Positions 6,092-64,000 of a DNA stretch of 64,000 nt are shown here, piece by piece. Source of the stretch: Polypterus senegalus (taxonomy: Eukaryota); NCBI RefSeq assembly GCF_016835505.1, contig NC_053155.1, forward strand, positions 74,788,088 to 74,852,087, given 5' to 3'. Within the stretch, counting starts at the first letter, position 1. Every line of letters starts with the position of its first letter. The notes below the pieces were generated by a model. That model worked only from the letters and a program-made list of their open reading frames with translations. It had not been told where the DNA came from and made no database searches. The position numbers and the translations under genes were made by a program.

Positions 6092-6234
6092 CCTGCGGTG
6101 GGCTGGCGCCCTTCCCAGGATTTGTTTCCTGCCTTGCGCCCTGTGTTGCCTGCGATTGGCTCCAGCAGACCCCCGTGACCCTGCATTTATTATATAGCGG
6201 GTTGGATAATGGATGGATGGATGGAAATCGTCCT
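6092..6234 (+). repeat. SINE 3'-tail fragment (same family as 2172-2448)
   Basis: ggtgggctggcgccc…gattggctccagcagacccccgtgaccctg…ggatggatggatgg. Confidence 0.7.
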
Positions 6235-9188: not shown

Positions 9189-10798
9189 TACAGGTGCTGG
9201 TCATAAAATTAGAATATCATGAAAACGTTGATTTAATTCAGTAATTCCATTCAAAAAGTGAAACTTGTATATTAGATTCATTCATTACACACAGACTGAT
9301 GTATTTCAAATGTTTATTTCTTTTAATTTTGATGATTATCACTGACAACAAATGAAAGTCCCAAATTCAGTATCTCAGAAAATTAGAATATTGTGAAAAG
9401 GTTCAATATTGAAGACACCTGGTGCCACACTCTAATCAGCTAATTAACTCAAAACACCTGCAAAAGCCTTTAAATGGTCTCTAAGTCTAGTTCTGTAGGC
9501 TACACAATCATGGGGAAGACTGCTGACTTGACAGTTGTCCAAAAGACGACCATTGACACCTTGCACAAGGAGGGCAAGACACAAAAGGTCATTGCTAAAG
9601 AGGCTGGCTGTTCACAGAGCTCTGTGTCCAAGCACATTAATAGAGAGATGAAGGGATGGACAAGATGTCATAGAAAAAAGTGTACAAGCAATAGGGATAA
9701 CCGCACCCTGGAGAGGATTGTGAAACAAAACCCATTCAAAACTGTGGGGGAGATTCACAAAGAGTGGACTGCAGCTGGAGTCAGTGCTTCAAGAACCACC
9801 ACGCACAGACGTATGCAAGACATGGGTTTCAGCTGTTGCATTTCTTGTGTCAAGCCACTCTTGAACAAGAGACAGCGTCAGAAGCGTCTAAAGACAACAA
9901 GGACTGGACTGCTTCTGAGTGGTCCAAAGATATGTTCTCTGATGAAAGTAAATTTTGCATTTCCTTTGGAAATCAAAGTCCCAGAGTCTGGAGGAAGAGA
10001 GGAGAGGCACAGAATCCATGTTGCTTGAGGTCCAGTGTAAAGTTTCCACAGTCAGTGATGGTTTGGGGTGCCATGTCATCTGCTGGTGTTGGTCCATTGT
10101 GTTTTCTGAGGTCCAAGGTCAACGCAGCCATCTACCAGGAAGTTTTAGAGCACTTCATGCTTCCTGCTGCTGACAAACTTTATGGAGATGCAGATTTCAT
10201 TTTCCAACAGGACCTGGCACTGCACACAGTGCCAAAGCTACCAGTACCTGGTTTAAGGACCATGGTATCCCTGTTCTTGATTGGCCAGCAAACTCGCCTG
10301 ATCTTAACCCCATAGAAAATCTATGGGGTATTGTGAAGAGGAAGATGTGCAATACGCCAGACCCAACAATTCAGAAGAGCTGAAGGCCACTATCAGAGCA
10401 ACATGGGCTCTCATAACACCTGAGCAGTGCCACAGACTGATCGACTCCATGCCACGCCGCATTGCTGCAGTAATCCAGGCCAAAGGAGACCCAACTAAAT
10501 ATTGAGTGCTCTACAAGCTCATACTATTCATGTTCATACCTTTCAGTTGGCCAACATTTCTAAAAATCCTATTTTTGCATTGGTCTTAATTGATACTCTA
10601 ATTTTCTGAGATACTGAATTTGGGACTTTCATTAGTTGTCAGTTATAATCATCAAAATTAAAAGAAATAAACATTTGAAATACTTCAGTCTGTGTGTAAT
10701 GAATGAATCTAATATACAAGTTTCACTTTTTGAATGGAATTACTGAAATAAATCAACTTTGTCATGATATTCTAATTTTATGACCAGCACCTGTCTAT
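9189..10798 (+). mobile_element. Tc1/mariner (Tc1-like) DNA transposon, ~1.6 kb, long IR/DR-type TIRs
   Basis: TIRs of ~230 bp (9189-9430 vs reverse complement of 10560-10798, both starting acaggtgctggtcataaaattagaatatc). Each TIR has an outer and an inner copy of the aaattagaatat(c/t)(a/g)tgaaaa motif. Internal Tc1 transposase reading frames. Confidence 0.85.
9513..10505 (+). pseudogene. Tc1-like DDE transposase, split over three frames by at least two frameshifts
   Basis: ORFs 9474-10028, 9764-10315 and 10323-10505 together give a paired-like HTH N-terminus (MGKTADLTVVQKTTIDTLHKEGKTQKVIAKEAGCSQSSVSKH…), a DDE core (…FSDESKFCISFGNQSPRVWRKRGEA…VMVWGAMSSAGVGPL…FQQD…) and a C-terminus (…[49 protein letters not shown]). 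Confidence 0.8.
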
Positions 10799-11299: not shown

Positions 11300-11470
11300 T
11301 CCTGGTACTTTCTTCTCATTGCTGTTCACTTGACCTTTGACTGGTTTCTTGATATACCTGAACAAGTTTCCAACATGTACTAACCCTTTTATACTTCTAA
11401 TGCGGCAAAACACCATCCTAAATGACTCTCTGAGCCCTAAGTCTACTTTTTCTTCCACATTAACCCCTTT
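11300..11470 (+). repeat. Copy 1 of a ~170-bp direct repeat pair 2.35 kb apart (LTR-like)
   Basis: ttgttcacttgacc…cccttttatacttctaa…cacc/tatcctaaatgact…tttcttccaca is shared with 13655-13815. Confidence 0.45.
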
Positions 11471-13654
11471 GGGACTTATTGAAGTTCCACTAAAACTATA
11501 AGGACTAATTTTCTACTGTAACTTTCTTTATTTCTAATTTGTATAAATCACATGTGTATCAAAAAACCAAATATGTCTCCCTCTAGAGACGAGAAATAAG
11601 GGAAAGATCTCTGGCCAGCCAAAATTTGGGAAAACAGTAATACTTACAATATCACGTAAATCAAGTCAAACAATAACATGTCCTGTATAAATGTGTGTCC
11701 CATAACCTCATAACGTCTAATGAACAGCTATTTAGTTTCCTTCTTGTCCAACAAACATTAGCTATGTTAGTTCTCAGAAATGTACCTAGTTCTACATCTT
11801 TCATCTATGGTCAGATCATTTAATATTATCGTTGGTGGTGACACAGACAGCACAAGTATTTACCTGAAAACTTCAAAATGTCTCTAGTTTATGTTGCCAA
11901 TGATGTACTGTATACAACAATAGCCAGAGAGAGAGTCCTCATACACACAACCACGCTTGCATCCTCATGCTTTCATCCACAACATTGCTCCAATTTACAT
12001 CCAGCTATGGTGTTAAATTATGCTATCACCTCTGTTGCATATATCTTACTGAAAGCAGGGGTCAATCCTCCCTTCAGAAGATGGCAGCACTACTCTCATG
12101 AATACAAGTTATTGGATTATGTATTTAAATTTCAATGGTCGTACCCAAGCTTCTTATTAATGTTAAATTCTTCTGCCACGAGCTGAAATTCTTGGTCTGT
12201 ATCCGGGCTTTCCAATTTCACAAACTGCACACTCACCACTCCATGCGTAAGACATTTCATCTCTGCTGTGCTGAATTATTAATTTGTTTTGCTATCTTGT
12301 ATATCACGTAGGCCCAAGAAGCCATTGCATTAATTATTTGTCTTGTATTGCCACCAATTATTTCTGTCTTGATGGCCCTAAGTATCCTGTTTCACTGTTA
12401 ACACTATCCCACAAACTTAATTTCCCTTACACTTTGTTCTACAAAGTTTAAAAGGTTTGTCCTATACCCTATATCTAATTTAGCATGTTTTAATTCTCAC
12501 ACCCAATATCATAGGGTGTGAGAATTTGTGTTCTAATGTTCTATCTACTCCTGGTGCAAAATTCCTAATATATTAATATTAACATTTGCTCCATCCTTCT
12601 GTATCAATTACTGTTATATATATCAATGGATTCAAACATGTTGTCCTGATTGTTTCTATTCCCAAAATATTTGCTATTTGCTGTCCTTTAGGTTTACTAC
12701 TATTCTTCAAAGTTAACAAATCTCAATGTCACTATTAAAATCAGTAGCCAAGAAACCTTAAATTGGGCTGACTTTTAACTTTTAATGCTACAAGTGCTAA
12801 TATTAGAATTACTAATGTAATAAGTGCTAGGATCCATGTGTTAAATTTTGATTCTGTCCAAATTACATGCAAACATTAATCTTTGAAAAGTATTTTTCCA
12901 TCAACTATCAATAAACTTATTAAAAACATCTATCCAAAAAATTTACTCTTAACACATTGCCTTTACTCTAAGTGCTGATCACATTATGCTAATCACATTT
13001 TCTAAACTTGTTCAATTATATTATCCCAATTGTCATGCAGGTTAAACCCAAAACAATTCAAATTCATAGTAATTGTGCAGTATTTCCATTAATAAAGCAA
13101 TAGTAACAAATATTCAATAAATACATGCTGCTTAAGAAAAAGCTAATTTGCCTTGCTGTGCTTGTGGATAATTAGCTTTTCCTCCTATCCATCCATAACT
13201 CCATGGTTCAAATATTTGTTGAAAGATATTTCTGCAGAAAAATCAAGATTAAGGTGTGGGTCCGATTCCTAGGGCAAGCAGAATTCAAATACTTGGTCAA
13301 CAACTGTCATAAAATGGCAAACACATGGGCATATTGTAAGGCAAATCAAGGACAGTTAAAGTGGGCTCTGGTAAAGAACATAGAACTCTGAACAGTAAAA
13401 GTGTGAATCAGGTCTTGGGGACCAAAACCCCAAAGTAAATTATATCAATTTCTGGGACTCTTGATTTAATAAATGAGGCTCTGGTCTGGATGCTATTGCA
13501 GGCTGCCCTTTATGATTCTAGATCCACAATGATCTTTTGGCATCAGTGGTCACCAGCACAGTTGAGTTGTTAGCAGCAGGAACCCGTGATCCCTTGGACT
13601 GGAACTGGAGTATGTTGTCCAGTAGTCAATTGGTCGATGGCTCTTGGTACATTC

Positions 13655-14349: not shown

Positions 14350-15150
14350 ATGATGAGTTGGGATCAGCTGTACTCTTTGCTTGGGGGTGTAAACAAACAC
14401 TCAACCAGCTTGGGGAAGATATGGCTCTCAGTCCTCTTTATTTTTCGCATTATGATCCTGGTGGTAGCAGTTGAAAGCGTCTGGGGGGATGAGCAGTCGG
14501 ACTTCACATGCAACACTTTACAACCAGGGTGCAAGAATGTCTGCTATGATCATTACTTTCCCATCTCTCATATTCGTCTGTGGTGCCTTCAGCTCATCTT
14601 TGTGTCTACTCCGGCTCTCCTAGTAGCTATGCATGCGGCCCACAGCAAGAAGGAACAGAAGAAGGACATCATTAAGACTATGGGAGATAAGGCTGATGAG
14701 GACCTAGAGATGCTCAAGAAAAAAAGGCTTCCAATTACAGGCTCATTATGGTGGACTTACACTGTAAGCCTCTTTTTCAGGCTGGCATTTGAAGGGGCTT
14801 TCATCTATGTTTTTTACTTGTTGTACAGTGGATTCCAGATGCCCCGCCTGGTAAAGTGTGATGCATGGCCATGTCCTAATGTGGTGGATTGCTTCATTTC
14901 ACGACCCACAGAGAAAACCGTGTTTACCATTTTCATGATTAGTGCCGCTGCACTCTGCATGGTCCTCAATGTGGCAGAAATGTGCTATTTGGTGGTTAAA
15001 GCCCTAGTACGCTGTTGCAAGTGCTCCCAGCAGGGGGTCAGTGCTCACCAGCTGCCCAATGGTATGGAGTACCAGCAGAACAAGGAGAAGGGGCAGCTGC
15101 TTTCTGAGGCCTCTTCTAGCAAAGACAGCTCCATGGACAAGTTTGCATAG
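14350..15150 (+). CDS. gjb2: Connexin (gap junction beta protein), single coding exon, 266 aa. The true start is probably the second Met at 14353
   Basis: Intact ORF with near-identity to the GJB2/GJB6 consensus: [77 protein letters not shown]…[14 protein letters not shown]…GSLWWTYT…[31 protein letters not shown]. Three extracellular-loop Cys per loop and four TM segments. A polypyrimidine tract plus AG acceptor sits just upstream (14320-14333), typical of a 5'UTR intron. The symbol is a clade assignment (gjb2 vs gjb6 unresolved). Confidence 0.9.
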
Positions 15151-18496: not shown

Positions 18497-18606
18497 TATC
18501 CATCCATTATCCAACCCGCTATATCCAAACTACAGGGTCATGGGGGTCTGCTGGAGCCAATCCCAGCCAACACAGGGCGCAAAGCAGGAAACAAATCCCG
18601 GTGTTC
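18497..18606 (-). repeat. SINE 3'-tail fragment, reverse orientation
   Basis: ccatccattatccaacccgctatat…cagggtcatgggggtctgctggagccaatcc is the reverse complement of the SINE tail. Confidence 0.7.
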
Positions 18607-32195: not shown

Positions 32196-33986
32196 CATTC
32201 CTTACAGCTTACTTACAAAAATTAAGCAGGTTTCATTTTGAAATACTACGCGTAACGGTCAACAACGTCCGCCATATTGAACTTTCTTATTCATGGCCCC
32301 ATCTTCACGAAATTTGGTACGTGGCTTCCCTGCGCTAACGAAACCAATGTACATACTTATTTGGTGGTATGGCGCCACTGTCAGCCGCCATATTGAACTT
32401 TCCAACGTCACTAATTCTCCTACTTCCCGTGTAGGTAAAAGGCTGAAATTTGGTACTTATTTCAGTGGTATGATGCCACTGTCGGCCGCCACATTGAACT
32501 TTTAACGGAAACCGATGCCCGTACTTATTTCGTTGGTATGACACCACTGTCGGCTGCCATATTGAACTTTCCAACGTCACTAATTCTCCAACTTCTTGTG
32601 GATGTAGAAGGCTGAAATTTGGCAGGCTCATTCCTTACAGCTTACTTATGACAGTTAAGCAGGTTTCATTTCGAAATTCTACGTGTAATGGTCATAACGG
32701 TCAACAACGTACACCATGTTGAACTTTCTTATTTATGGCCCCATCTTCTCGAAATTTGGTAGGCGGCTTCCCTGAGCTAACCGAAACTAATGACGTACTT
32801 GTTTCGGTGGTATGATGCCACTGTCGGCCGCCATATTGAACTTTTCAATAGTCTTTGTTACTTATGGGCCCATCTTCAAGAAATTTGGTACACGGGTTCC
32901 CAACGCTAACTGAATCCTACTTGCGTACATATATACGTCCATAGCCTGCAGCTCGGTCACCGTGAGGCGGCATTGGGTCCCCCAACCCAACGCCTCCCAT
33001 GTTGTTGGCTGCCTGCCTATATAAGACCGTTCGTCGCTCCGGTCTCTACATTCCCTTCCTTGCTTCGCCATGGGATTCATGTCTCCCTACTGATAACTAC
33101 AGCCTTTTTGTTTAATCCACGGCTTCTCTGCTGTTTTATTGTTTGTTTATTACAATTATAGTTATTGTGTAGATATTTTACACTTACTTTACATTGCTCA
33201 GGTACCCATCTCCTTTATCATTCCAACCCCCATTACCATGTCTATCGAGATGATCATATTGCACGGCCATATCAGGCTCGCGCTTGATATCCGGAGGAAC
33301 ATTGTGTCTTATGTATTGAATGACTGGGACAGGTTCAAGGTGTGGACTGATGACAGTACAGGAGATAATTATACTACACAGGAGCACTATAAGAGTGAAA
33401 TGCTTAAGCCCTTCACCTATGGTTCTGCATGTGAGTTGATGGCTGCCACTGAATTGTTCGGTTGTTGCTTTCAAGTGTACCAAAATGGCCAAATATTTTA
33501 CACCTTTCGACAACCGCCAATGCCTCTTAAACATCTTAGATTCACAGGTGACGATTTCAGAAGTGGACACTTTTTGATGTTTATGAATGTTTAAACTCTT
33601 CAAAAGCTGGATGTGATTTTATCGATGAAACCGGTTGTGTGCTTACAATGCTTGACAGATGCCAAATGTCACTTCAACACAACAAATCCTGCAAATACTG
33701 TCATAATTGAAACAAACCATGAAACTCGAGCTGCCTCCAAGCTGTGAGATTTGAGACAAGATTACTGTTCACATGGCCAACTGTAAGTTGCATGCTCAAG
33801 AGTAAGCTCAGCGCAAAGCTTGGTCATGTTACAACTGGAGGGCCGAACTGACAACATGGTATACAAAGAGATCCTTAACAAATAATTATTGGCATATTTT
33901 CCCTTAGTTTTAAAAGGTTTAATTTTCTTCTTAATAAAAATTTTAATGCAGTACTTCGCTGTTGCGAAGCGCGGGTATTTTGCTAG
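32196..33986 (+). mobile_element. Helitron-like composite non-autonomous element, copy 1 (5'-truncated)
   Basis: Left edge abuts a truncated Tc1 TIR (cagtgggtacggaaagtattcagaccccc, 32135-32195). Contains tandem ~150-bp sub-repeats (32290-32930), TATA (cctatataagacc ~33013), a leader, the OTU-like ORF, and the 3' end …cttcgctgttgcgaagcgcgggtattttgCTAG|T. Confidence 0.45.
33238..33594 (+). CDS. OTU-like cysteine-protease-fold ORF (118 aa from the ATG); the catalytic Cys motif is absent
   Basis: MSIEMIILHGHIRLALDIRRNIVSYVLNDWDRFKVWTDDSTGDNYTTQEHYKSEMLKPFTYGSACELMAATELFGCCFQVYQNGQIFYTFRQPPMPLKHLRFTGDDFRSGHFLMF follows the OTU topology (…H..lR..vv.Y…F..F… / Y…M…g.wGg.iEl.A..e….I.vy / …HY…). The position of DGNCLF reads HGHIRL. 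Confidence 0.4.
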   Translation: MSIEMIILHGHIRLALDIRRNIVSYVLNDWDRFKVWTDDSTGDNYTTQEHYKSEMLKPFTYGSACELMAATELFGCCFQVYQNGQIFYTFRQPPMPLKHLRFTGDDFRSGHFLMFMNV

Positions 33987-34454: not shown

Positions 34455-35641
34455 TCTATACTAATAAAAGGCAAAGCCCTCACTAACTCATTCATCACTA
34501 ATTCTCCAACTTCCCATGTAGGTAGAAGGCTGAAATTTGTCAGGCTCATTCCTTACAGGTTACTTACAAAAGTTAAGCAGGTTTCATTTCGAAATTCTAC
34601 GCGTAACGGTCATAACTGAATACTACTTGCGTACATGTATACATCCATAGCCTGCAGCTCGGTTGCGGTGTGAGGCGACGTTATGTCCCCCATCCCCACG
34701 CCTCCCACGTAGTTGGCTGCCTGCCTATATTGCGTCCCCCATCCCCACGCCTCCCATGTAATTGGCTGCCTGCCCATATAAGACTGTCCGTCGCTCCGGT
34801 CTCTTCATTCCCATCCTTGCTTCGCCATGGTATTCATGTCTCCCTGCTGATAACTGCAGCCTTTTTATTTAATCCACGGCTTCTCCGCTGTTTTATTGTT
34901 TGTTTATTACAATTATAGTTATTGTGTAGGTATTTTAGACTTAGTTTACTGTTCAGATACCCATTTCCTTTACCGTTCCAACCGTACCCCCATTAACATG
35001 TCTATCGAGGTGATCACCATCGATCAAAGAACTGTCACTTACTGAAACTCAAACCAATTATGACAGCAGCAATCCAAGCTGTGAGAAAACAGTAAAAAGG
35101 AGGCGTGTCAGACGTCGTGGTACATTTTCTGATGCAACTAGACGGAAACAACTTCGTGACGCTGCCTCCAAATACTCGCAGAACAATCCAAGTTAATAGA
35201 CACGCTGTCGCTAAATACTTGCAGGCATATCCACAAGTTCATAGAGACGCTGTCGCTAAATACTTGCAGGCAGATCCACAAGTTCCTAGACACGCAGCTG
35301 CTAAATATCTGCAGGCAAGTTCACAAGTTAATACTGGGAATGCCTGTTAAACATCTTAGATTCACGAGTAGCGATTTGGGTAGTGAACACTTCGATGAAT
35401 GAAACCTGTTATCTTTACAACGGTTGACAAACACAGAATGCAACTTGAACACAACATGTCCTCCAAATACGAACCTGATTGAAAGAAATGATAATCAAAT
35501 CCTTGATGACAGCAACACTCATAAGTGACAAAACAATTACATTAACAATCATGTTACGTTATTTTTAAAATGTTTCCTTTTCTTTTTCATAACTTCTTTA
35601 ACACACTACTTCTCTGCTGCGAAGCGTGGGTATTTTGCTAG
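34455..35641 (+). mobile_element. Helitron-like composite non-autonomous element, copy 2 (complete ends)
   Basis: 5' TCtatactaataaaaggcaaagccctcac…(tgac/tcat)…cactaattctccaacttccc…ggcaggctcattccttacag…gcgtaacggtcataactg. TATA (cccatataagactgtcc ~34785), a leader, three 42-bp tandem repeats (35190-35340), and 3' …ctgctgcgaagcgtgggtattttgCTAG|T. Confidence 0.45.
35190..35340 (+). repeat. 3 x 42-bp tandem repeat inside copy 2; translates as (N/H)R(H/D)AVAKYLQA(Y/D)PQV. A divergent version lies in copy 4
   Basis: atccacaagttcatagagacgctgtcgctaaatacttgcaggca repeated. ORF 35105-35350 is a by-product of the repeat. Confidence 0.6.
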
Positions 35642-36297: not shown

Positions 36298-36427
36298 TGT
36301 GGTGGGCTGGTGCCCTGCCCGGGGTTTGTTTCTTGCCTTGAGCCCTGTGTTGGCTGGGATTGTCTCCAGCAAACCCCCGTGACCCTGTAGTTAGGATATA
36401 GCGGGTTGGATAATGGATGGATGGATA
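36298..36427 (+). repeat. SINE 3'-tail fragment
   Basis: ggtgggctggtgccctgccc…gtctccagcaaacccccgtgaccctg…ggatggatggatag. Confidence 0.7.
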
Positions 36428-53900: not shown

Positions 53901-55274
53901 TTAGGGTGATAAGCTCTTGTTGTCATGGACACACTCTGGCCACAGCTTCATCCAGTAGGCATTGAGGGTTTCCTTTTTCATCTCCTTAAGAGCAGCTTGG
54001 ATGACTGACAGGCACGTAGTGATTGTAAAGTTATGCCAGTAACCCTTCAATGTAAAATTCTCGTCCGTGTCCATTGCATCCACAAGGTATTGGGGAGAAA
54101 TCCGGGTATAAAGAGCCTTGAAGGCACAGATTATGCCTTGATCCATAGGTTGGATGAGGGAGGTGGTGTTGGCAGGGAGGAACTCGGTCTGAACTCCCTC
54201 GTAATACAAATCCAAAGAGTGGCTGCCAGCATTATCCATAATAAGCAACACCTTGAAGTCCATGCCTAAGTCGTGGAGGTATTCCTTGGCTTGACAGATG
54301 AAGCACTGGTGAAACCAGTTTGAAGCAAGGATTTTGGTAATCCAGACTTTAGGGTTGTGCATCCAGAAGACAAGCAGCAGGTTTTTATTTTTGTTTTTAA
54401 GGGCCCTAGGGTTTGCGGATTTGTAGATGAGGCCAGGTTTCATCCTGTAACCAGCAGCATTGCCACACATAATAAATGTCACTCTGTCCTTCTGTACCTT
54501 AAACCCTGGAGCTTTGACTTCGTCCTTCATAATGCAAGTTCTGGACGGCATCTTCTTCCAGAACAAGTCGGTCTCATCCATTTTAAAAACTTGTTGAGGC
54601 TTGTATCCCTTCTCCTCTATGATGTGCGTAAATGTCTCGGAGTACTTCTCTGCAGCTGCTTTGTCAGCAGATGCTGCCTGTCCATGTAGAGAGAAGCTTT
54701 TAATATTAAATCGTTTCTGAAAACGATCAAACCATCCCTTACTGGCTTGAAAATGTTCAGGCTCCGGTGCTGTTGATGAACCTGGTTGTGGTTCTTTGGT
54801 ACCTTCTACATTGTCTACTGTAGTGAACTTCTGGTACAGTTTTCGTGCTTTCTCACGGTTGATGTTACCGTCCAAGGGGATGTTCTTCCTGCAGTCGGTG
54901 ATCCACAAAGCCAAGGCAGATTCCATTCTGACGATATTTTTATTCCTTACGGTCGTTACCTTTTTGGCACTATCACAGAAACTTACAGTACTCCGGATCG
55001 CTGCCTTGTTCATCTTTATGTAGCGTACGATGCTTTCATTAATGCCATAGTGGCGCGCTACTGCAGCATAACTTTTTAGTTCCCGGAGCAAATCCAGTAG
55101 TTCAGCCTTCTCCTGGAGTGTTTTAAACTTCTTCTGGTGCTTAGGCTCAGTGCCAGAAGCCTTAGAAGGTGCAGGGCGTTTCAGTGACATCTTGTGCATT
55201 TTAAAAATAAAAAAATGGAAAACACGAGGCCGCGGTCGAAGACGCATCACAGGGCAGCAGTCAATCAGCAGCAA
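53901..55274 (-). CDS. Tigger/pogo transposase (CENP-B-type HTH plus DDE_1), 457-aa uninterrupted ORF
   Basis: …LKRPAPSKASGTEPKHQKKFKTLQEKAELLDLLRELKSYAAVARHYGINESIVRYIK… then …ALALWITDCRKNIPLDGNINREKARKLYQKF… then …KPQQVFKMDETDLFWKKMPSRT…TFIMCGNAAGY…HNPKVWITKILASNWFHQCFICQAKEYL…DFKVLLIMDNAGSH…ANTTSLIQPMDQGII…. Confidence 0.8.
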   Translation of the reverse strand: MLLIDCCPVMRLRPRPRVFHFFIFKMHKMSLKRPAPSKASGTEPKHQKKFKTLQEKAELLDLLRELKSYAAVARHYGINESIVRYIKMNKAAIRSTVSFCDSAKKVTTVRNKNIVRMESALALWITDCRKNIPLDGNINREKARKLYQKFTTVDNVEGTKEPQPGSSTAPEPEHFQASKGWFDRFQKRFNIKSFSLHGQAASADKAAAEKYSETFTHIIEEKGYKPQQVFKMDETDLFWKKMPSRTCIMKDEVKAPGFKVQKDRVTFIMCGNAAGYRMKPGLIYKSANPRALKNKNKNLLLVFWMHNPKVWITKILASNWFHQCFICQAKEYLHDLGMDFKVLLIMDNAGSHSLDLYYEGVQTEFLPANTTSLIQPMDQGIICAFKALYTRISPQYLVDAMDTDENFTLKGYWHNFTITTCLSVIQAALKEMKKETLNAYWMKLWPECVHDNKSLSP

Positions 55275-59047: not shown

Positions 59048-60133
59048 CTAGCAAAATACCCGCGCTTTGCAGCGGAGAAGAAGTGTGTTAAAGAAGTTAT
59101 GAAAAAGAAAAGGAAACATTTTAAAAATAATGTAACATTTGCTTTCTATTTGTTTGCATAAACACAGTCCTTCACCAGCAATTATTTAACGTTAGCTCAG
59201 ACCCGGCACTTAAAAGTTTCTGTTGCACTTTTGCTGAGTTTGCGCCAAACACTATTCTATCTCTGACCATTTCATCTTCGTTTGCATAAGCACAGTCCTT
59301 CACCAGCAATTTTAACTCGGTTACAAAGTGATCAAAAGTGTTGTTTATATCCTGCGTCCTCTCAGTAAACTTGTATCTCGCAAATATCGCATTCGTCTTA
59401 GGCATGACAAACGCCATCGGCAGTGTGTCTATAAACTTACGGTTTACACCGTGCTTTGTTTCTGCAGTAGCTGCACTTATGAATATGCTTGTATGCGTCA
59501 CTCGCTTCATATTCTTTTGCTGCCTTCTCAATTGTGTAATGCGTTTTTTGTTCAGAGCTCTTCCTTGTTCTCTGCGTACTGCGTTCATAGTCAGTTCACG
59601 TGAGCTACTCAGAGTACATGCATAGAAGGTTTCTGAGCTGTGCTTGTGCTATCTTGTGCGATGTCCACGGCTTTATTTTATGTTAGCTAAGACCCGGCAC
59701 TTAAGTTTCTCTCACACTTTCGCTGAGTTTGTGCCAAACACTACCCTGACCATCTCATCTTCGTTTGTATAAGCACAGTCCTTCACCCGCGAATATTTAG
59801 CGGCAGAGTGTTTCTACTGGATTGCCGCTGATGGACAGACTTATATGGGCAGGAACTCAATTACGTGGGAGTCGTTGGTAAGGTGGACGCAATTCTGCCT
59901 CACATGGCGACTGAGCTGCAGGCTAAGGCCATATACAGTATGTGTACATAAGTAGGTTCCAGTTATGACCGTTGCGTGTAGAATTTCGAAATGAAACCTG
60001 CCTAACTTTTTTAAGTAAGCTGTAAGGAATGAGCCTGCCAAATTTCAGCCTTCTACCTACACGGGAAGTTGGAGAATTAGTGGTGAGTCAGTCAGTCAGT
60101 CAGTCAGTGAGGGCTTTGCCTTTTATTAGTATA
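59048..60133 (-). mobile_element. Helitron-like composite non-autonomous element, copy 3 (minus orientation)
   Basis: Read on the minus strand: 5' TCtatactaataaaaggcaaagccctcac(tgac)5…cactaattctccaacttcccgtgtaggtagaaggctgaaatttggcaggctcattccttacag…, then TATA (cccatataagtctgtcc), the Gag-like ORF, and 3' …ccgctgcaaagcgcgggtattttgCTAG|T at 59048-59051. Confidence 0.45.
59172..59588 (-). CDS. Retrotransposon Gag-like ORF fragment (138 aa) carried inside copy 3
   Basis: …ARYKFTERTQDINNTFDHFVTELKLLVKDCAYANEDEMVRDRIVFGANSAKVQQKLLSAGSELTLNNC matches the Retrotrans_gag core pattern (F…Q…E…F…L.L…C.Y…EE.iRDrlV.G…+LL….LTL). Confidence 0.45.
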   Translation of the reverse strand: MNAVRREQGRALNKKRITQLRRQQKNMKRVTHTSIFISAATAETKHGVNRKFIDTLPMAFVMPKTNAIFARYKFTERTQDINNTFDHFVTELKLLVKDCAYANEDEMVRDRIVFGANSAKVQQKLLSAGSELTLNNCW

Positions 60134-60284
60134 GATTAGCAGAATACCCGCGCTTCGCAACGGAGAAGTAGTGTGTTAAAGAAGTTATGAAAAAGAAAAG
60201 GAAAAATTTTAATAATAACGTAATATAATTGTTTTGTCTTTGATATGAGTGTTATATATATATGTATATATATAAGTTGGCGTC

Positions 60285-60456
60285 AGAATATATAAAGTCA
60301 TTCCCGAATATATAAAGTCAAAACTTGAATATATAAAGTCACGGTCGGAATATATATAAAGTCAAAACTTGAATATATAAAGTCAGCGCTGGAATATATA
60401 AAGTCAAAATCGAAGTATATAAACTCATTCCTGAATATATAAAGTCAAAATATATT
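60285..60456 (+). repeat. Iteron-like array, forward arm: ~8 x gaatatataaagtca plus a 6-nt spacer (aaactt alternating with gcgctg-type)
   Basis: Read directly from the sequence. The unit is ~21 bp and the dimer ~42 bp. Confidence 0.8.
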
Positions 60457-60553
60457 GATTGAAACGACTCTGAACTGAACTAAGTGAACAAAAACGTATT
60501 CAGAAAAATAAATTAAAAAACGCTGTTCGGTTAATGTTTTGAAAATGATGCAT

Positions 60554-60664
60554 GTGCCCTGCCCAGGATTGGTTCCTGCTTTGCGCCCAGTGTTGGCTGG
60601 GATTGGTTCCAGCAGACCCCCGTGACCCTGTGGTCGGATTCAACGTGTTGGGAAATGGATGGAT
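60554..60664 (+). repeat. SINE 3'-tail fragment inserted between the two palindrome arms
   Basis: gtgccctgcccaggattggttcc…ggttccagcagacccccgtgaccctg…ggaaatggatggat. Confidence 0.7.
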
Positions 60665-60669
60665 ATTCC

Positions 60670-61048
60670 AGAGCTGACTTTATATATTCCGACGCTGACT
60701 TTATATATTGAAATTTTGACTTTATATATTGTAGCGCTTACTTTATAGCCTGTATTCCAACGCTGACTTTATATATTCAAGATTTGACTTTATAGATTCC
60801 AGCGCTGAACTTTATATATTCTGACGCTGACTTTATATATTTAAGTTTTGACTTTATATATTCCAGCGCTTACTTTATATATTCCGAAATATTCCAACGC
60901 CGTCTTTATATACTCAGGTTTTGACTTTATATATTCAGAAACAAGTATTGACTTTATATATACCGACACTGACTTTATATATTCAAGTTTTGACTTTATT
61001 TAATCCGACAGTGACTTTATATAATCAAGTTTTGACTTTCTATAGTTA
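60670..61048 (-). repeat. Iteron-like array, reverse arm: ~18 x tgactttatatattc (reverse complement of the forward unit)
   Basis: Read directly from the sequence. Together with 60285-60456 it forms a long imperfect palindrome. Confidence 0.8.
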
Positions 61049-61770
61049 AATGTAGTCATCATTGCATACATTTTTCTTCACCATAGAAATTTAAAGACTA
61101 AATTCAACTTCCATTCCTACCAAAGATATTTCTGGTGACTAAATAGAACCTACTTGTATCCAAATTCGAGCTATTGAGCTGTCGCCTGCCTGCCTGAATA
61201 AGTCCCCCTCGCTTCGCTCTTACTTTTTACCGTTCATTTAATCATGGCTAGTGGCGGAAAAATTATAAAATGGAAGGAGGATTACACTGAGTATGGCTTT
61301 ACCAAAACAATTATTGATGGCGAATCGATTATTCATAAAGCTTCAATTGGTGATCTGTTTTTCTGTGTTAACCTCATATTTTTTCATACTTCTTCTCAAA
61401 CCAAGGGGGTGCGAGGTTAAAATGAATCGGGAAGCGCTGATCAATGTAATCGGTGTACCAGGAAATCATGCATTGAGAGAAGTTCCCCTTTGCTTGGAAT
61501 GCAAAGTGTGATTAAATACATGATTTTTTTAACGTGTTATGGAGCACATGCATTGAAGCTTCTAGGCTGTGCTTGTGCTAAGAAAAGGAAACATTTTAAA
61601 AATAACGTAACACGATTGTCAATGTAACCTTTTGTAAGTAGTGCCTGGAGGATTCAGTGTGGAGAAACTGTAGAGACAGCGTGTGTATTAACTTGTGGAT
61701 TTTTCTGTGAGTATTTGGTGGCAGCGTCACAAAGGCGCTTCTGTAACACTGCGTACGTTAGCTGCGGAGC

Positions 61771-61983
61771 TCAGCTCAGAGCGAAATGAGGTGAATGGGA
61801 GAGGAGATGATGACGTGACTCCCCACCTGCCTTAACTGTCAATCCCCACAAACACAGTCTCTCGGAATTTGCATAAGCACAGCCCTTTACCTTCAATTTT
61901 AACTTAGTTACAAAGTGATCAAAACTCTCGTTTATATCCTGCGTCCTCTCATTAAACTTGTATCCCGCATTACCCGTGGGCAT
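61771..61983 (-). pseudogene. Gag-like ORF fragment in copy 4, paralogous to 59172-59588
   Basis: MPTGNAGYKFNERTQDINESFDHFVTKLKLKVKGCAYANSERLCLWGL… matches the same Gag core, then degenerates. Confidence 0.4.
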
Positions 61984-63182
61984 GACAAACGCCAGCGGTA
62001 GCCTGTCTATGAGCTTAATTAAACTTTAGGTTTACACCTTGCTTTGTTTCCGAAGTAGCAGCACTCATGAATATGGTTGTACTGTATATGTCACTCGCTT
62101 GCTTCTCATTGTTTCGCTGCCTTCCTAATTATATAATGTATGTTTTCTTCAGCGGTTTTTGGAGCTCTTCCTGGTTTTCTACGTACTGCGTGATTACGTG
62201 GGAGGCGTGATGATGTCACACGAAACTCTGCCCCCACGGCTTTCGAGCTTAACTCCATTACAGTAAATGGAGAAAAATAGCTTCCAGTTATGACCCTTAC
62301 GCGTAGAATTTTTAAATGAAACCTGCCCAATTTTTGTAAGTAAGCTGTAAGGAATGAGCCTGCCAAATTTCAGCCTTCTACCCACACGGGAACTCGGAGA
62401 ATTACTGATGAGTCAGTGAGTCAGTCAGTGAGTGAGTCAGTGAGGGCTTTGCCTTTTATTAGTATAGATCACAGTTAAATAATTCTTGTGAACAGTCGCG
62501 CAGCAAAAATTAAAAAATGCTAGACAGTAGGATAGTTTCGTATCTGTCAGACTTGCTTAATGTAATATATGGTTGTGGAGAGCCAGAGCCTATTCTCCAC
62601 ATGGGCAGCCTCCAGGCATGCAATTTCAAGCCCACTTTCCAACCCGAATTACACAGACTATAAATAAATTTACAATGTGAAATAATCACTTTTCTCTAAA
62701 ATAACAATTAATAGGAAGTAATAAAAATGATAGGTAATTCATAACAAAACTGCACAACATTAATAAAAAAAATTATATTTTAACAAATGCGCAAAGAATT
62801 TAACAGTTAATGGATTACAGATGTCTCTTTATTTGCATGGCTTTGTTTCTTGTGAATTATTACTAAATCCAGTTTATTACCAGATTGTTAACATAAACTT
62901 TGTGATCTGTTGGAATTTAAAGTTAAATATAAATGTAATTTCTTTTTCACAATTTAACACATTTGCTTGAATCCAGCTGATATTTTTATTTGTTTTCAGC
63001 TTAATGTTGACTGCATTTTTATCAGTTAATGTTTGCTGGTTTTCTAGGTGGTTCTAAATGATTTTCTGACTGGATCTGTGAACTGATCCCACAAACCCTT
63101 ATAAAACATTGAGAACAAGAATGTACTGTACTATAGTTATTCATTTTTTTTTTCTTTCCATCATTTGTACCTTTTCCTGCAG

Positions 63183-63337
63183 GCCTGTAAAAGAGGAAAT
63201 ATAGACATAGTGAAGCTTCTGCTGGAGTATGGAGCTGACAGTAATATGCTGTCTAAACATCAGAACAATGCACTGCATTTTGCAAAACTTAGCAATAATG
63301 TCCTAGTATATGACTTGGTCAAATCTCATATGGATGC
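63183..63337 (+). CDS. mphosph8: mpp8 exon 10 (ankyrin repeat). The gene continues beyond the window
   Basis: ACKRGNIDIVKLLLEYGADSNMLSKHQNNALHFAKLSNNVLVYDLVKSHMDA then gtaagt. Human has ACKRGNSDIVRLVIECGADCNILSKHQNSALHFAKQSNNVLVYDLLKNHLET. Confidence 0.9.
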
Positions 63338-64000
63338 GTAAGTGTTTCAAATATTTTACAAACCAAAATTACCGAAATTACTGTTTCATCAAAGGTCTCT
63401 GTAAAGAAATGTTTAAAATTTATTAATTTCTTATCTTTGAAATTAACAAAAGAACAAAAATGTATGCTTGTTACTTGAGAAACAACCACAGTATTAGTGA
63501 AATAAGATGTCTGTAGACCTTGTAGGCATGCATGAATGTTTTATCATCTTACTTTAATAATATTCAAAGTTACTTTGTGGCAGCTTTGAGGAACTGACCT
63601 TTCCACGAATGTTGTAAAGAATGACTGCAGACGTATGTTCAGAAAAACGCAACAATAGAATTGTGTGTTTAATTCCAAAAGCTCAGGTCTAATTCCAGTA
63701 GGGCATGTCTTGTTTAAATAAGGATGCACTGTTGATGGCCACATTATTCGACACTCTGGTTTACTGCCAGGTAGGACTCGTTTTTACCTTCAAAACCGCC
63801 TGAATTCAGGGAGATTTGAATTCAGGAACATTAAGGAAGCCCTCCATAGGGATTTACCTGTGCTCCCTCAACAGCATCACGTAGTTCCTATATATCATTG
63901 ACCATATGTTGAGAGAGTAAATCTTTGTCTTACCCAGAATGCACTGCTACAGAGCACTGGATTAGATTGAAGTTGCTGTGATGTTCCTGCAGCCAGTCTG

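Follow-up and report, generated by a model that had tools for sequence, protein, structure and literature searches.

What is the origin of two arrays of a short tandem repeat that face each other in opposite orientation around unrelated DNA in the genome of Polypterus senegalus, and do they carry out any function? The arrays lie in a 64,000-nt stretch of chromosomal DNA (hereafter the window) that also contains a single-exon connexin gene at positions 14350–15147. This gene has an exact match in contig JAAWVN010026910.1 of GCA_016984135.1, an assembly that a preprint assigns to P. senegalus, and the window is identical to positions 531,063–595,062 of the contig in reversed orientation. An initial annotation of this DNA had described tandem arrays that form a palindrome within an inserted block, and this structural description is supported and largely right; its proposals that a SINE splits the array and that an adjacent open reading frame lacks a recognizable domain were wrong, and the Helitron context of the locus had been missed.

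Two opposed arrays built from a 42-bp dimer

The arrays are real and locus-specific. When up to three mismatches are allowed, the 15-mer GAATATATAAAGTCA matches the 64-kb window 27 times (dinucleotide shuffles: mean 4.1, maximum 11); 24 of these matches are located within 60286–61047, the remaining three are at chance level, and no further copy of the array motif was found elsewhere in the 64 kb. The forward arm (60286–60447, plus strand) consists of exactly eight units with a spacing of ~21 bp (starting at 60286, 60306, 60327, 60350, 60371, 60392, 60413 and 60433), in agreement with an earlier estimate of about eight. The reverse arm (60665–61047, minus strand) carries 17 units of the same 15-mer that span 60675–61047, 16 of them with at most three mismatches and the 17th, at 60738–60752, with five. 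About 18 exact reverse-complement units had been claimed for this arm; the array itself is borne out, the exactness is not, since the complementarity between the arms varies between 74 and 93%, depending on the register.

In both arms, and as had been noticed before, the spacer AAACTT alternates with GCGCTG, GCGTCG or CGGTCG (GCGYYG type), and for each of them periods of 21 and 41/42 were obtained with Tandem Repeats Finder. The alternation of the two spacer types means that the true repeat is a 42-bp dimer, a higher-order unit composed of a 15-bp core, AAACTT, a second 15-bp core and GCGYYG. The identity of the cores amounts to 0.92 in the left arm, 0.84 in the right arm and 0.88 across the arms. 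The two arms also differ substantially in length (about 165–195 bp on the left versus about 385 bp on the right), and the right arm contains an internal duplication of ~135 bp (60665–60884 resembles 60796–61026 with 81% identity), while the left arm possesses private features, TTCCC/TTCCT spacers and an extra TA, that have no right-arm equivalent. A recent mirror-image inverted duplication was consequently rejected as the source of the arms, given that they carry such private variants. The outermost units of the arrays are the most degenerate; on the left, a TA-rich edge (60254–60285, plus strand) holds one to two degenerate units, e.g., ATATATATAAGTTG followed by gcgtca, and begins exactly where the Helitron sequence discussed below breaks.

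A DNA folding prediction, suggested by the initial annotation as a check, shows that a single strand comprising 60250–61060 folds far better than its shuffled counterparts (−136.5 kcal/mol versus −62.6 ± 4.5 kcal/mol; z = −16). The feature is a decayed foldback structure of two opposed minisatellite arrays. On general grounds, extrusion of a cruciform by the arrays in duplex DNA is unlikely, because the arms are separated by a gap of 227 bp, are unequal in length, and show a complementarity of no more than about 80–90%.

The restriction of the motif to one locus bears on two simple interpretations. If the arrays were a minor offshoot of a satellite that is abundant throughout the bichir genome, their short, AT-rich unit and tandem organization would be compatible with such an origin, although nothing speaks for it directly; we regard it as very unlikely, as there is no further copy in the 64 kb, a literature search with the motif as a string returned no match, and no bichir satellite of this kind was found described. 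The unit length of about 21 bp is also reminiscent of the iterons of plasmid- or virus-like replication origins. This length is the sole support for an iteron array, an interpretation that is effectively refuted: the window is vertebrate chromosomal DNA, there is no rep gene or corresponding ORF nearby, and a DNA pattern of two adjacent units had zero matches in metagenome contigs, prokaryotic genomes and viral contigs. The three reading frames of the consensus array, when compared with a protein collection, yielded a single insignificant match, and an exact look-up of seven ORFs of the locus in the protein collection found none of them.

Artificial palindromes can occur in long-read assemblies, and the observed structure might in principle stem from a chimeric foldback read or from the collapse of an array. 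We consider this highly improbable. Technical foldbacks are near-perfect mirrors, whereas the arms studied here comprise eight versus 17 units with 74–93% complementarity and arm-specific variants; furthermore, the DNA flanking the arrays is collinear with other copies of the Helitron in which they reside.

A mosaic block inside a Helitron-like repeat

The arrays are embedded in a repeat of which several copies are present in the window. Copy A (60136–62468, minus strand, 2,333 bp) holds the arrays and is joined head to tail to copy B (59048–60135, minus strand, 1,088 bp), so that the two form a dimer at 59048–62468. A solo copy, C (34455–35641, plus strand, 1,187 bp, TC...CTAG|T), is uninterrupted and provides the reference, or "empty site". 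A sharp 5′ boundary, TCTATACTAATAAAAGG, is found in three copies, at 62468(−), 60135(−) and 34455(+), and the base preceding its TC is an A in two of the three (among them copy A) and a G in one. The equally sharp 3′ boundary, ..GCGAAGCGCGGGTATTTTGCTAG (..CCGCTGCGAAGCGCGGGTATTTTGCTAG), is common to four copies; it reads CTAG at 59048(−), 35641(+) and 33986(+), and CTAA at 60136(−), the end of copy A. A T follows all three of the three free 3′ ends, including that of copy B, and the CTAA end is joined without a gap to the TC of the adjacent copy. Neither terminal inverted repeats (TIRs) nor a target-site duplication (TSD) were found at the ends of the host repeat, and its flanks are unrelated to each other.

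Helitrons possess TC...CTRR ends, insert between A and T, and contain a hairpin about 12 nt before their 3′ end (PMC12001565). Judged by its termini (TC...CTRR at A|T, no TIR or TSD), the host repeat is a non-autonomous Helitron; its copies are classified as non-autonomous because they are only 1.1–2.3 kb long. The head-to-tail arrangement of copies A and B resembles that of other Helitron arrays, which has been attributed to rolling-circle replication (PMC12001565, PMC12628747). Several observations fit the assignment less well. The sequence CCGCTGCGAAGCGCGG, which is found 12 nt before CTAG, can form a 6-bp stem with a GAA loop (−5.1 kcal/mol), but this hairpin is no better than those of shuffled sequences (z only −0.9) and is mutated in one copy. 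In addition, one of the 5′ flank bases is G instead of A, and the window contains no RepHel gene or long ORF of that kind. A 138-aa ORF of the host repeat had been considered as retrotransposon gag-like; this candidate was abandoned, as it found no Pfam support and the termini pointed to a Helitron.

A block interrupts copy A 118 bp upstream of the 3′ end of this copy, which is collinear with copies B and C on either side of the interruption. When mapped to the base against solo copy C, from which it is absent, this block extends from 60254 to 61579 and comprises 1,326 bp. The initial annotation had recognized the additional DNA as an insert of 1.35 kb, while its limits (60240–61590) require correction. 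The left flank matches copy C through 60253, and the right flank picks up at 61580, but 57–71 bp further back in the repeat. Hence, a 57–71 bp subterminal segment of the Helitron occurs twice and flanks the block as a left duplicate at 60193–60253 (minus strand, solo-copy positions about 1060–1130) and a right duplicate at 61580–61635 (minus strand, solo-copy positions about 1074–1130).

The content of the block is heterogeneous. It is made up of the two arrays, the 3′ piece of a SINE, the 5′ piece of a hAT transposase gene, a Helitron interior piece, and three stretches of unique DNA. The Helitron interior piece of about 42 bp (61539–61579, minus strand) is equivalent to 59610–59651 of the neighboring copy B and has been displaced to the edge of the block. 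The three stretches, located between the arms (60448/60451–60553) and on the two sides of the hAT piece (61048–61207 and 61322–61538), resemble neither each other nor any other part of the window. Scans of the whole window with Rfam and for tRNAs gave no match.

No signature of a transposition event that would have introduced the block or the arrays as a unit was detected at their edges. There is no TIR at either the array or the block edges and no inverted match outside the arrays; likewise, no direct k-mer of at least 7 is common to 60215–60290 and 61040–61110, and none of at least 8 was found when the search was extended up to 61600. The edge of an array coincides with that of the block on the left side only. 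That a LINE had retroposed the block and thereby created a long TSD was considered as well and rejected, as a poly(A) or LINE-type tail is missing from both ends.

The loop between the arms and the adjacent hAT fragment

The arms enclose a loop of about 215 bp of unrelated DNA. Its left part consists of ~103 bp of unique, non-repeat DNA (60448/60451–60553) that has no match in the window or in the loci fetched for comparison. Its right part (60554–60664, plus strand), which ends with ..AATGGATGGAT, corresponds to the 3′-terminal 111 bp of a tRNA-derived SINE, as the initial annotation had correctly proposed in calling it a SINE tail. Four other copies of this element are present in the window; the tRNA-like head of a full-length copy at 2172–2449, together with its 13-bp TSD (TAAAGACTATTCT), identifies the family as a genuine SINE. 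The view that the SINE sits at the center and splits the array is not tenable, however. The piece is off-center and adjoins a truncated right-arm unit (ATTC) on one side and the unique DNA on the other. A SINE insertion did not split the array, because the piece is 5′-truncated, has no TSD around it (60554–60664), and is flanked by unique DNA and a truncated unit.

The presence of this foreign DNA is relevant to the idea that the arrays are nothing but a plain 42-bp minisatellite that became palindromic through an inversion or a strand-switch duplication, with no binding role and no connection to transposon ends. The 42-bp structure and the duplication within the right arm are what unequal exchange typically produces, the arrays have degenerate edges, and the surrounding block exhibits several template-switch-like junctions. 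Yet the arms are not mirror images, with TTCCC/TTCCT spacers and a TA insertion that are private to the left arm, and an inversion would need breakpoints both inside and outside of the array, while ~215 bp of foreign DNA lie between the arms. As a complete account of the locus, we judge this explanation to be unlikely.

To the right of the reverse arm, the initial annotation had reported an ORF of 88 aa at 61262–61528 that was thought to lack a recognizable domain. An ORF of this size and location does not exist; the reading frame starting with MASGGKIIKWKEDY corresponds to 61244–61420 (plus strand) and encodes 58 aa (MASGGKIIKWKEDYTEYGFTKTIIDGES...). Only its codons 1–26 are homologous to hAT transposases, where they correspond to the N-terminus of the Buster/ZBED5 type. 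Neither a Pfam search of the ORFs of the block nor a word-indexed search for homologues of the 58-aa ORF gave a match. An exhaustive phmmer search with this ORF yielded eight matches, six of which were repetitive proteins and were discarded as spurious; the two that were kept are short proteins, P0007 (E = 3.4e-4) and P0009, and have the motif KWKEDYTEYGF(T/A)KTI(I/V)DG in common with the ORF. The homologues P0010 and P0011 of P0007 match FAM200-ZBED5_RNase-like and DUF4371, and at one of the related loci (L004) the next gene has a FAM200-GTF2IRD2-like match and a faint match to the hAT dimerization domain (Dimer_Tnp_hAT). In a tblastn comparison, residues 1–26 of P0010 align with 61244–61321 (73% identity, E = 5e-8), and no further hAT-like stretch was detected in the window by this method.

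At the DNA level, the homology to the hAT relatives is limited to 61208–61321 (plus strand), where 26 codons and the 36 bp preceding them survive (gene positions about −36 to +78), with no extension towards the array. From this homology, the ORF can be traced to a hAT transposase gene of the Buster/ZBED5 type, of whose 5′ end 114 bp remain. The unique DNA at 61048–61207, which lies between this remnant and the right arm, shows no homology to the 5′ UTRs of the hAT relatives, and that at 61322–61538, downstream of it, has no match in the window.

The vicinity of a hAT gene fragment, 197 bp from the right arm, suggests another origin for the arrays. They might be the arms of a non-autonomous DNA transposon of the foldback or hAT type whose ends have been lost since its cut-and-paste insertion into or beside the Helitron; the 15-bp cores that recur every 21 bp would then be putative multimeric transposase-binding sites. 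The architecture of the feature fits, as do the restriction of the motif to a single locus in 64 kb, with no sign of a regional satellite, and the precedent of foldback transposons such as Drosophila FB, Galileo of the P superfamily and Tetris, which likewise have long, unequal inverted arms of short tandem repeats and a non-repeated loop. The Galileo repeats carry transposase-binding sites, and the THAP domain binds within such tandem repeats (PMC3688188). Repeated subterminal motifs are also bound by hAT transposases (PMC3143072), and those of Herves (CG/AATTCAT) are, like the cores described here, short motifs present in both orientations. The locus differs from foldback transposons in several respects, among them the lack of a conserved terminal sequence of about 40 bp, of a TSD and of a P/MULE-type transposase, and the fact that the most decayed repeats are the outermost ones. 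The subterminal transposase-binding motifs of hAT elements, such as AAACGG of Ac and those of Hermes, are 5–9 bp long and irregularly spaced, whereas the 15-bp core studied here follows a strict 21-bp phase and is accompanied by neither a hAT TIR nor an 8-bp TSD.

Direct comparison with the hAT relatives does not strengthen the connection. At the loci L002–L004, the 5′ UTRs, which reach about 0.6 kb (L002/L003), are free of arrays; across L002–L006, no array motif, tandem array or AAAGTCA enrichment was found, a weak test since these loci come from other species. The ends of the related loci are too decayed for defining TIRs, and no other repeats are common to the hAT relatives and the window. 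The hAT homology within the window stops short of the array; there is no TIR beyond the arrays, no direct repeat of at least 7 bp at the candidate edges, and no conserved terminal sequence in the degenerate outermost units; and the edge of the block is matched by the left array edge only. Nothing found ties the arrays to this hAT element. Furthermore, the cores are apparently better conserved than the spacers because of CpG decay in the latter: the variable positions of the GCGYYG spacers are CpG sites, and the core is CpG-free. Overall, we deem it rather unlikely that the arrays entered the locus as the arms of such a transposon.

Probable passenger DNA of a Helitron: origin and significance of the arrays

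Our preferred explanation, held with modest confidence as somewhat more probable than not, is that the arrays and the mosaic block around them are passenger DNA acquired by a Helitron, which decays neutrally and has no present function. The patchwork of unrelated pieces between Helitron ends speaks for it, and the flanking duplicate fits a re-priming event after a template switch. A likely route for the acquisition of the block by the Helitron lineage would be template switching or filler-DNA synthesis in the course of rolling-circle replication or break repair, and re-priming about 70 bp upstream would have left the Helitron duplicate on the two sides of the block. Helitrons are known to acquire tandem repeats and 5′ gene fragments by this route. 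Prior to their capture, the arrays may have been the arms of a foldback-type transposon, in which case they would represent multi-copy sites for a putative DNA-binding protein, phased two helical turns apart; alternatively, they may have been a plain minisatellite that experienced an inversion. The data are equally compatible with foldback arms and with an inverted plain minisatellite as the source of the captured arrays.

The extent of decay is consistent with the passenger explanation. The array cores differ from their consensus at 27 of 375 positions (7%), and the two flank copies differ from copy C by 4–9%; in view of this similarity, the arrays appear to evolve neutrally, and they are most likely non-functional. 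The hAT piece, which derives from the 5′ end of a gene, follows the bias reported for Helitron capture, where 17 of 19 cases in Xenopus favor gene 5′ ends (PMC12001565). Its orientation is at odds with this precedent, as captured fragments have been reported to be mainly in sense orientation (PMC12001565), and both the hAT and the SINE pieces are antisense to the Helitron. It should also be noted that the block is present in one Helitron copy of the window only. For this reason, an insertion or rearrangement after integration of copy A is as compatible with the data as a capture that preceded transposition.

The locus can be compared with two groups of known Helitron features. Helitrons form tandem arrays and can carry minisatellites (PMC12001565), and their interiors often contain satDNA-like arrays that sometimes vary in orientation and length (PMC12628747). 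Examples of Helitron- and Helentron-borne arrays are provided by DINE-1/HINE, the Cg170-bearing Helitrons of oysters, Heli2Xen of Xenopus, and Helitron-N1_DR, in all of which, as in copy A, an array is located between conserved Helitron ends. Arrays that vary in length and orientation within one element, captured fragments, and head-to-tail tandems alongside the arrays are further common traits (PMC12628747, PMC12001565). Unlike these elements, the host repeat described here has canonical Helitron1-type ends (TC...CTAG), a unit of 21/42 bp instead of about 150–170 bp, and arrays in a single one of its copies within the window; these arrays form an inverted pair around foreign DNA and are bracketed by a 57–71 bp Helitron duplicate. 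The second group comprises the capture of gene fragments by Helitrons (transduplication), by which short fragments of unrelated loci come to lie between Helitron ends and, as in the present case, the coding piece stems from a gene's 5′ end (PMC12001565). The fragment discussed here is unusual in that it originates from a transposase gene, is antisense to the Helitron, and is known from a single copy.

We suggest that the arrays are most likely ordinary transposon debris, another instance of the known transposon-associated repeats and no new functional element. It would be of greater consequence if they represented an undescribed family of polypterid foldback transposons, possibly mobilized by a Buster-like hAT element with the cores serving as multimeric binding sites, or a functional fold-back of the Helitron itself, and we consider either of these possibilities to be quite improbable. 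As a functional accessory, the arrays might, for example, form a long fold-back while the rolling-circle intermediate is single-stranded and thereby affect termination; the locus would likewise gain in value should a vertebrate family of foldback transposons turn out to have such arrays as its arms. On the preferred reading as Helitron passenger DNA, the odd insert, the duplication at its flanks and its mosaic composition would be accounted for by the TC...CTAG ends of the host repeat, and the locus would add, from an early-branching lineage of ray-finned fishes, one more example of Helitrons that accumulate and carry tandem repeats together with pieces of other transposons. If the 2.3-kb composite Helitron, of which one copy is known here, proved to have been amplified, it would be a vertebrate Helitron that disperses a minisatellite together with a foldback structure. 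For the location of this copy in another sequence record, the Helitron dimer corresponds to positions 532,595–536,015 and the arrays to positions 534,016–534,777 of contig JAAWVN010026910.1 (GCA_016984135.1), in reversed orientation relative to the window.

Helitron copies and their possible cargo

A non-autonomous Helitron family, with ends TCTATACTAATAAAAGG ... GCGAAGCGCGGGTATTTTGCTAG followed by T, is represented in the window by a pair of copies at 59048-62468 on the minus strand, by a solo copy of 1.19 kb at 34455-35641 on the plus strand, and by a 3' end at 33986; partial 5' pieces of the same family are present at 32.2-33.0 kb. The pair forms a direct head-to-tail dimer, in which CTAA abuts TC at the junction (60136/60135). 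Within the Helitron 5' region, an (AGTC)n / (TGAGTCAG)n microsatellite is found at 60086-60108 and 62409-62444, and its length is unequal in the two copies. Because an ankyrin-repeat coding exon bounded by AG/GT splice sites lies at 63183-63338, the dimer is probably located within an intron of an ankyrin-repeat gene, or immediately adjoins one.

Two ORFs run on the Helitron sense strand (59172-59588, minus, 138 aa; 61771-61983, minus, 70 aa) and are homologous to each other. They bear a likeness to retrotransposon gag, but a Pfam search gave no match; these ORFs may represent a captured fragment.

The array core, and hAT copies in other species

The core of the short-repeat arrays (60286-61047) includes TATATAAAG. 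According to PMC12001565, the Helitron family Heli1Xen1, which is present in Polypterus too, has a conserved TATATAAA in its left terminal sequence; the match between the two motifs is too short for interpretation. Decayed Buster/ZBED5-type hAT copies were found in three loci from ENA assemblies of other species (L004, 6048-11609; L002, 9383-11991; L003, 9498-12009). L004 also contains a 170-bp MITE (11409-11578) with inverted ends CAGTGATGGGATTCA and four internal AAGAACNGGTTC repeats.

Other elements and genes in the window

A full-length tRNA-derived SINE (2172-2449) is flanked by a 13-bp target-site duplication, TAAAGACTATTCT (2159-2171 and 2450-2462), and its 3' 65-125 bp recur at 6108-6218, 18497-18594 (minus), 36310-36422 and, between the two array arms, 60554-60664. 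The window further contains an intact, single-exon connexin gene (14350-15150; PF00029) and a pogo/Tigger-like transposase ORF of 457 aa (53901-55274, minus; DDE_1, HTH_Tnp_Tc5, CENP-B_N). At 9474-10315 on the plus strand lies the remnant of a Tc1-like transposase (HTH_Tnp_Tc3_2), which is frameshifted.
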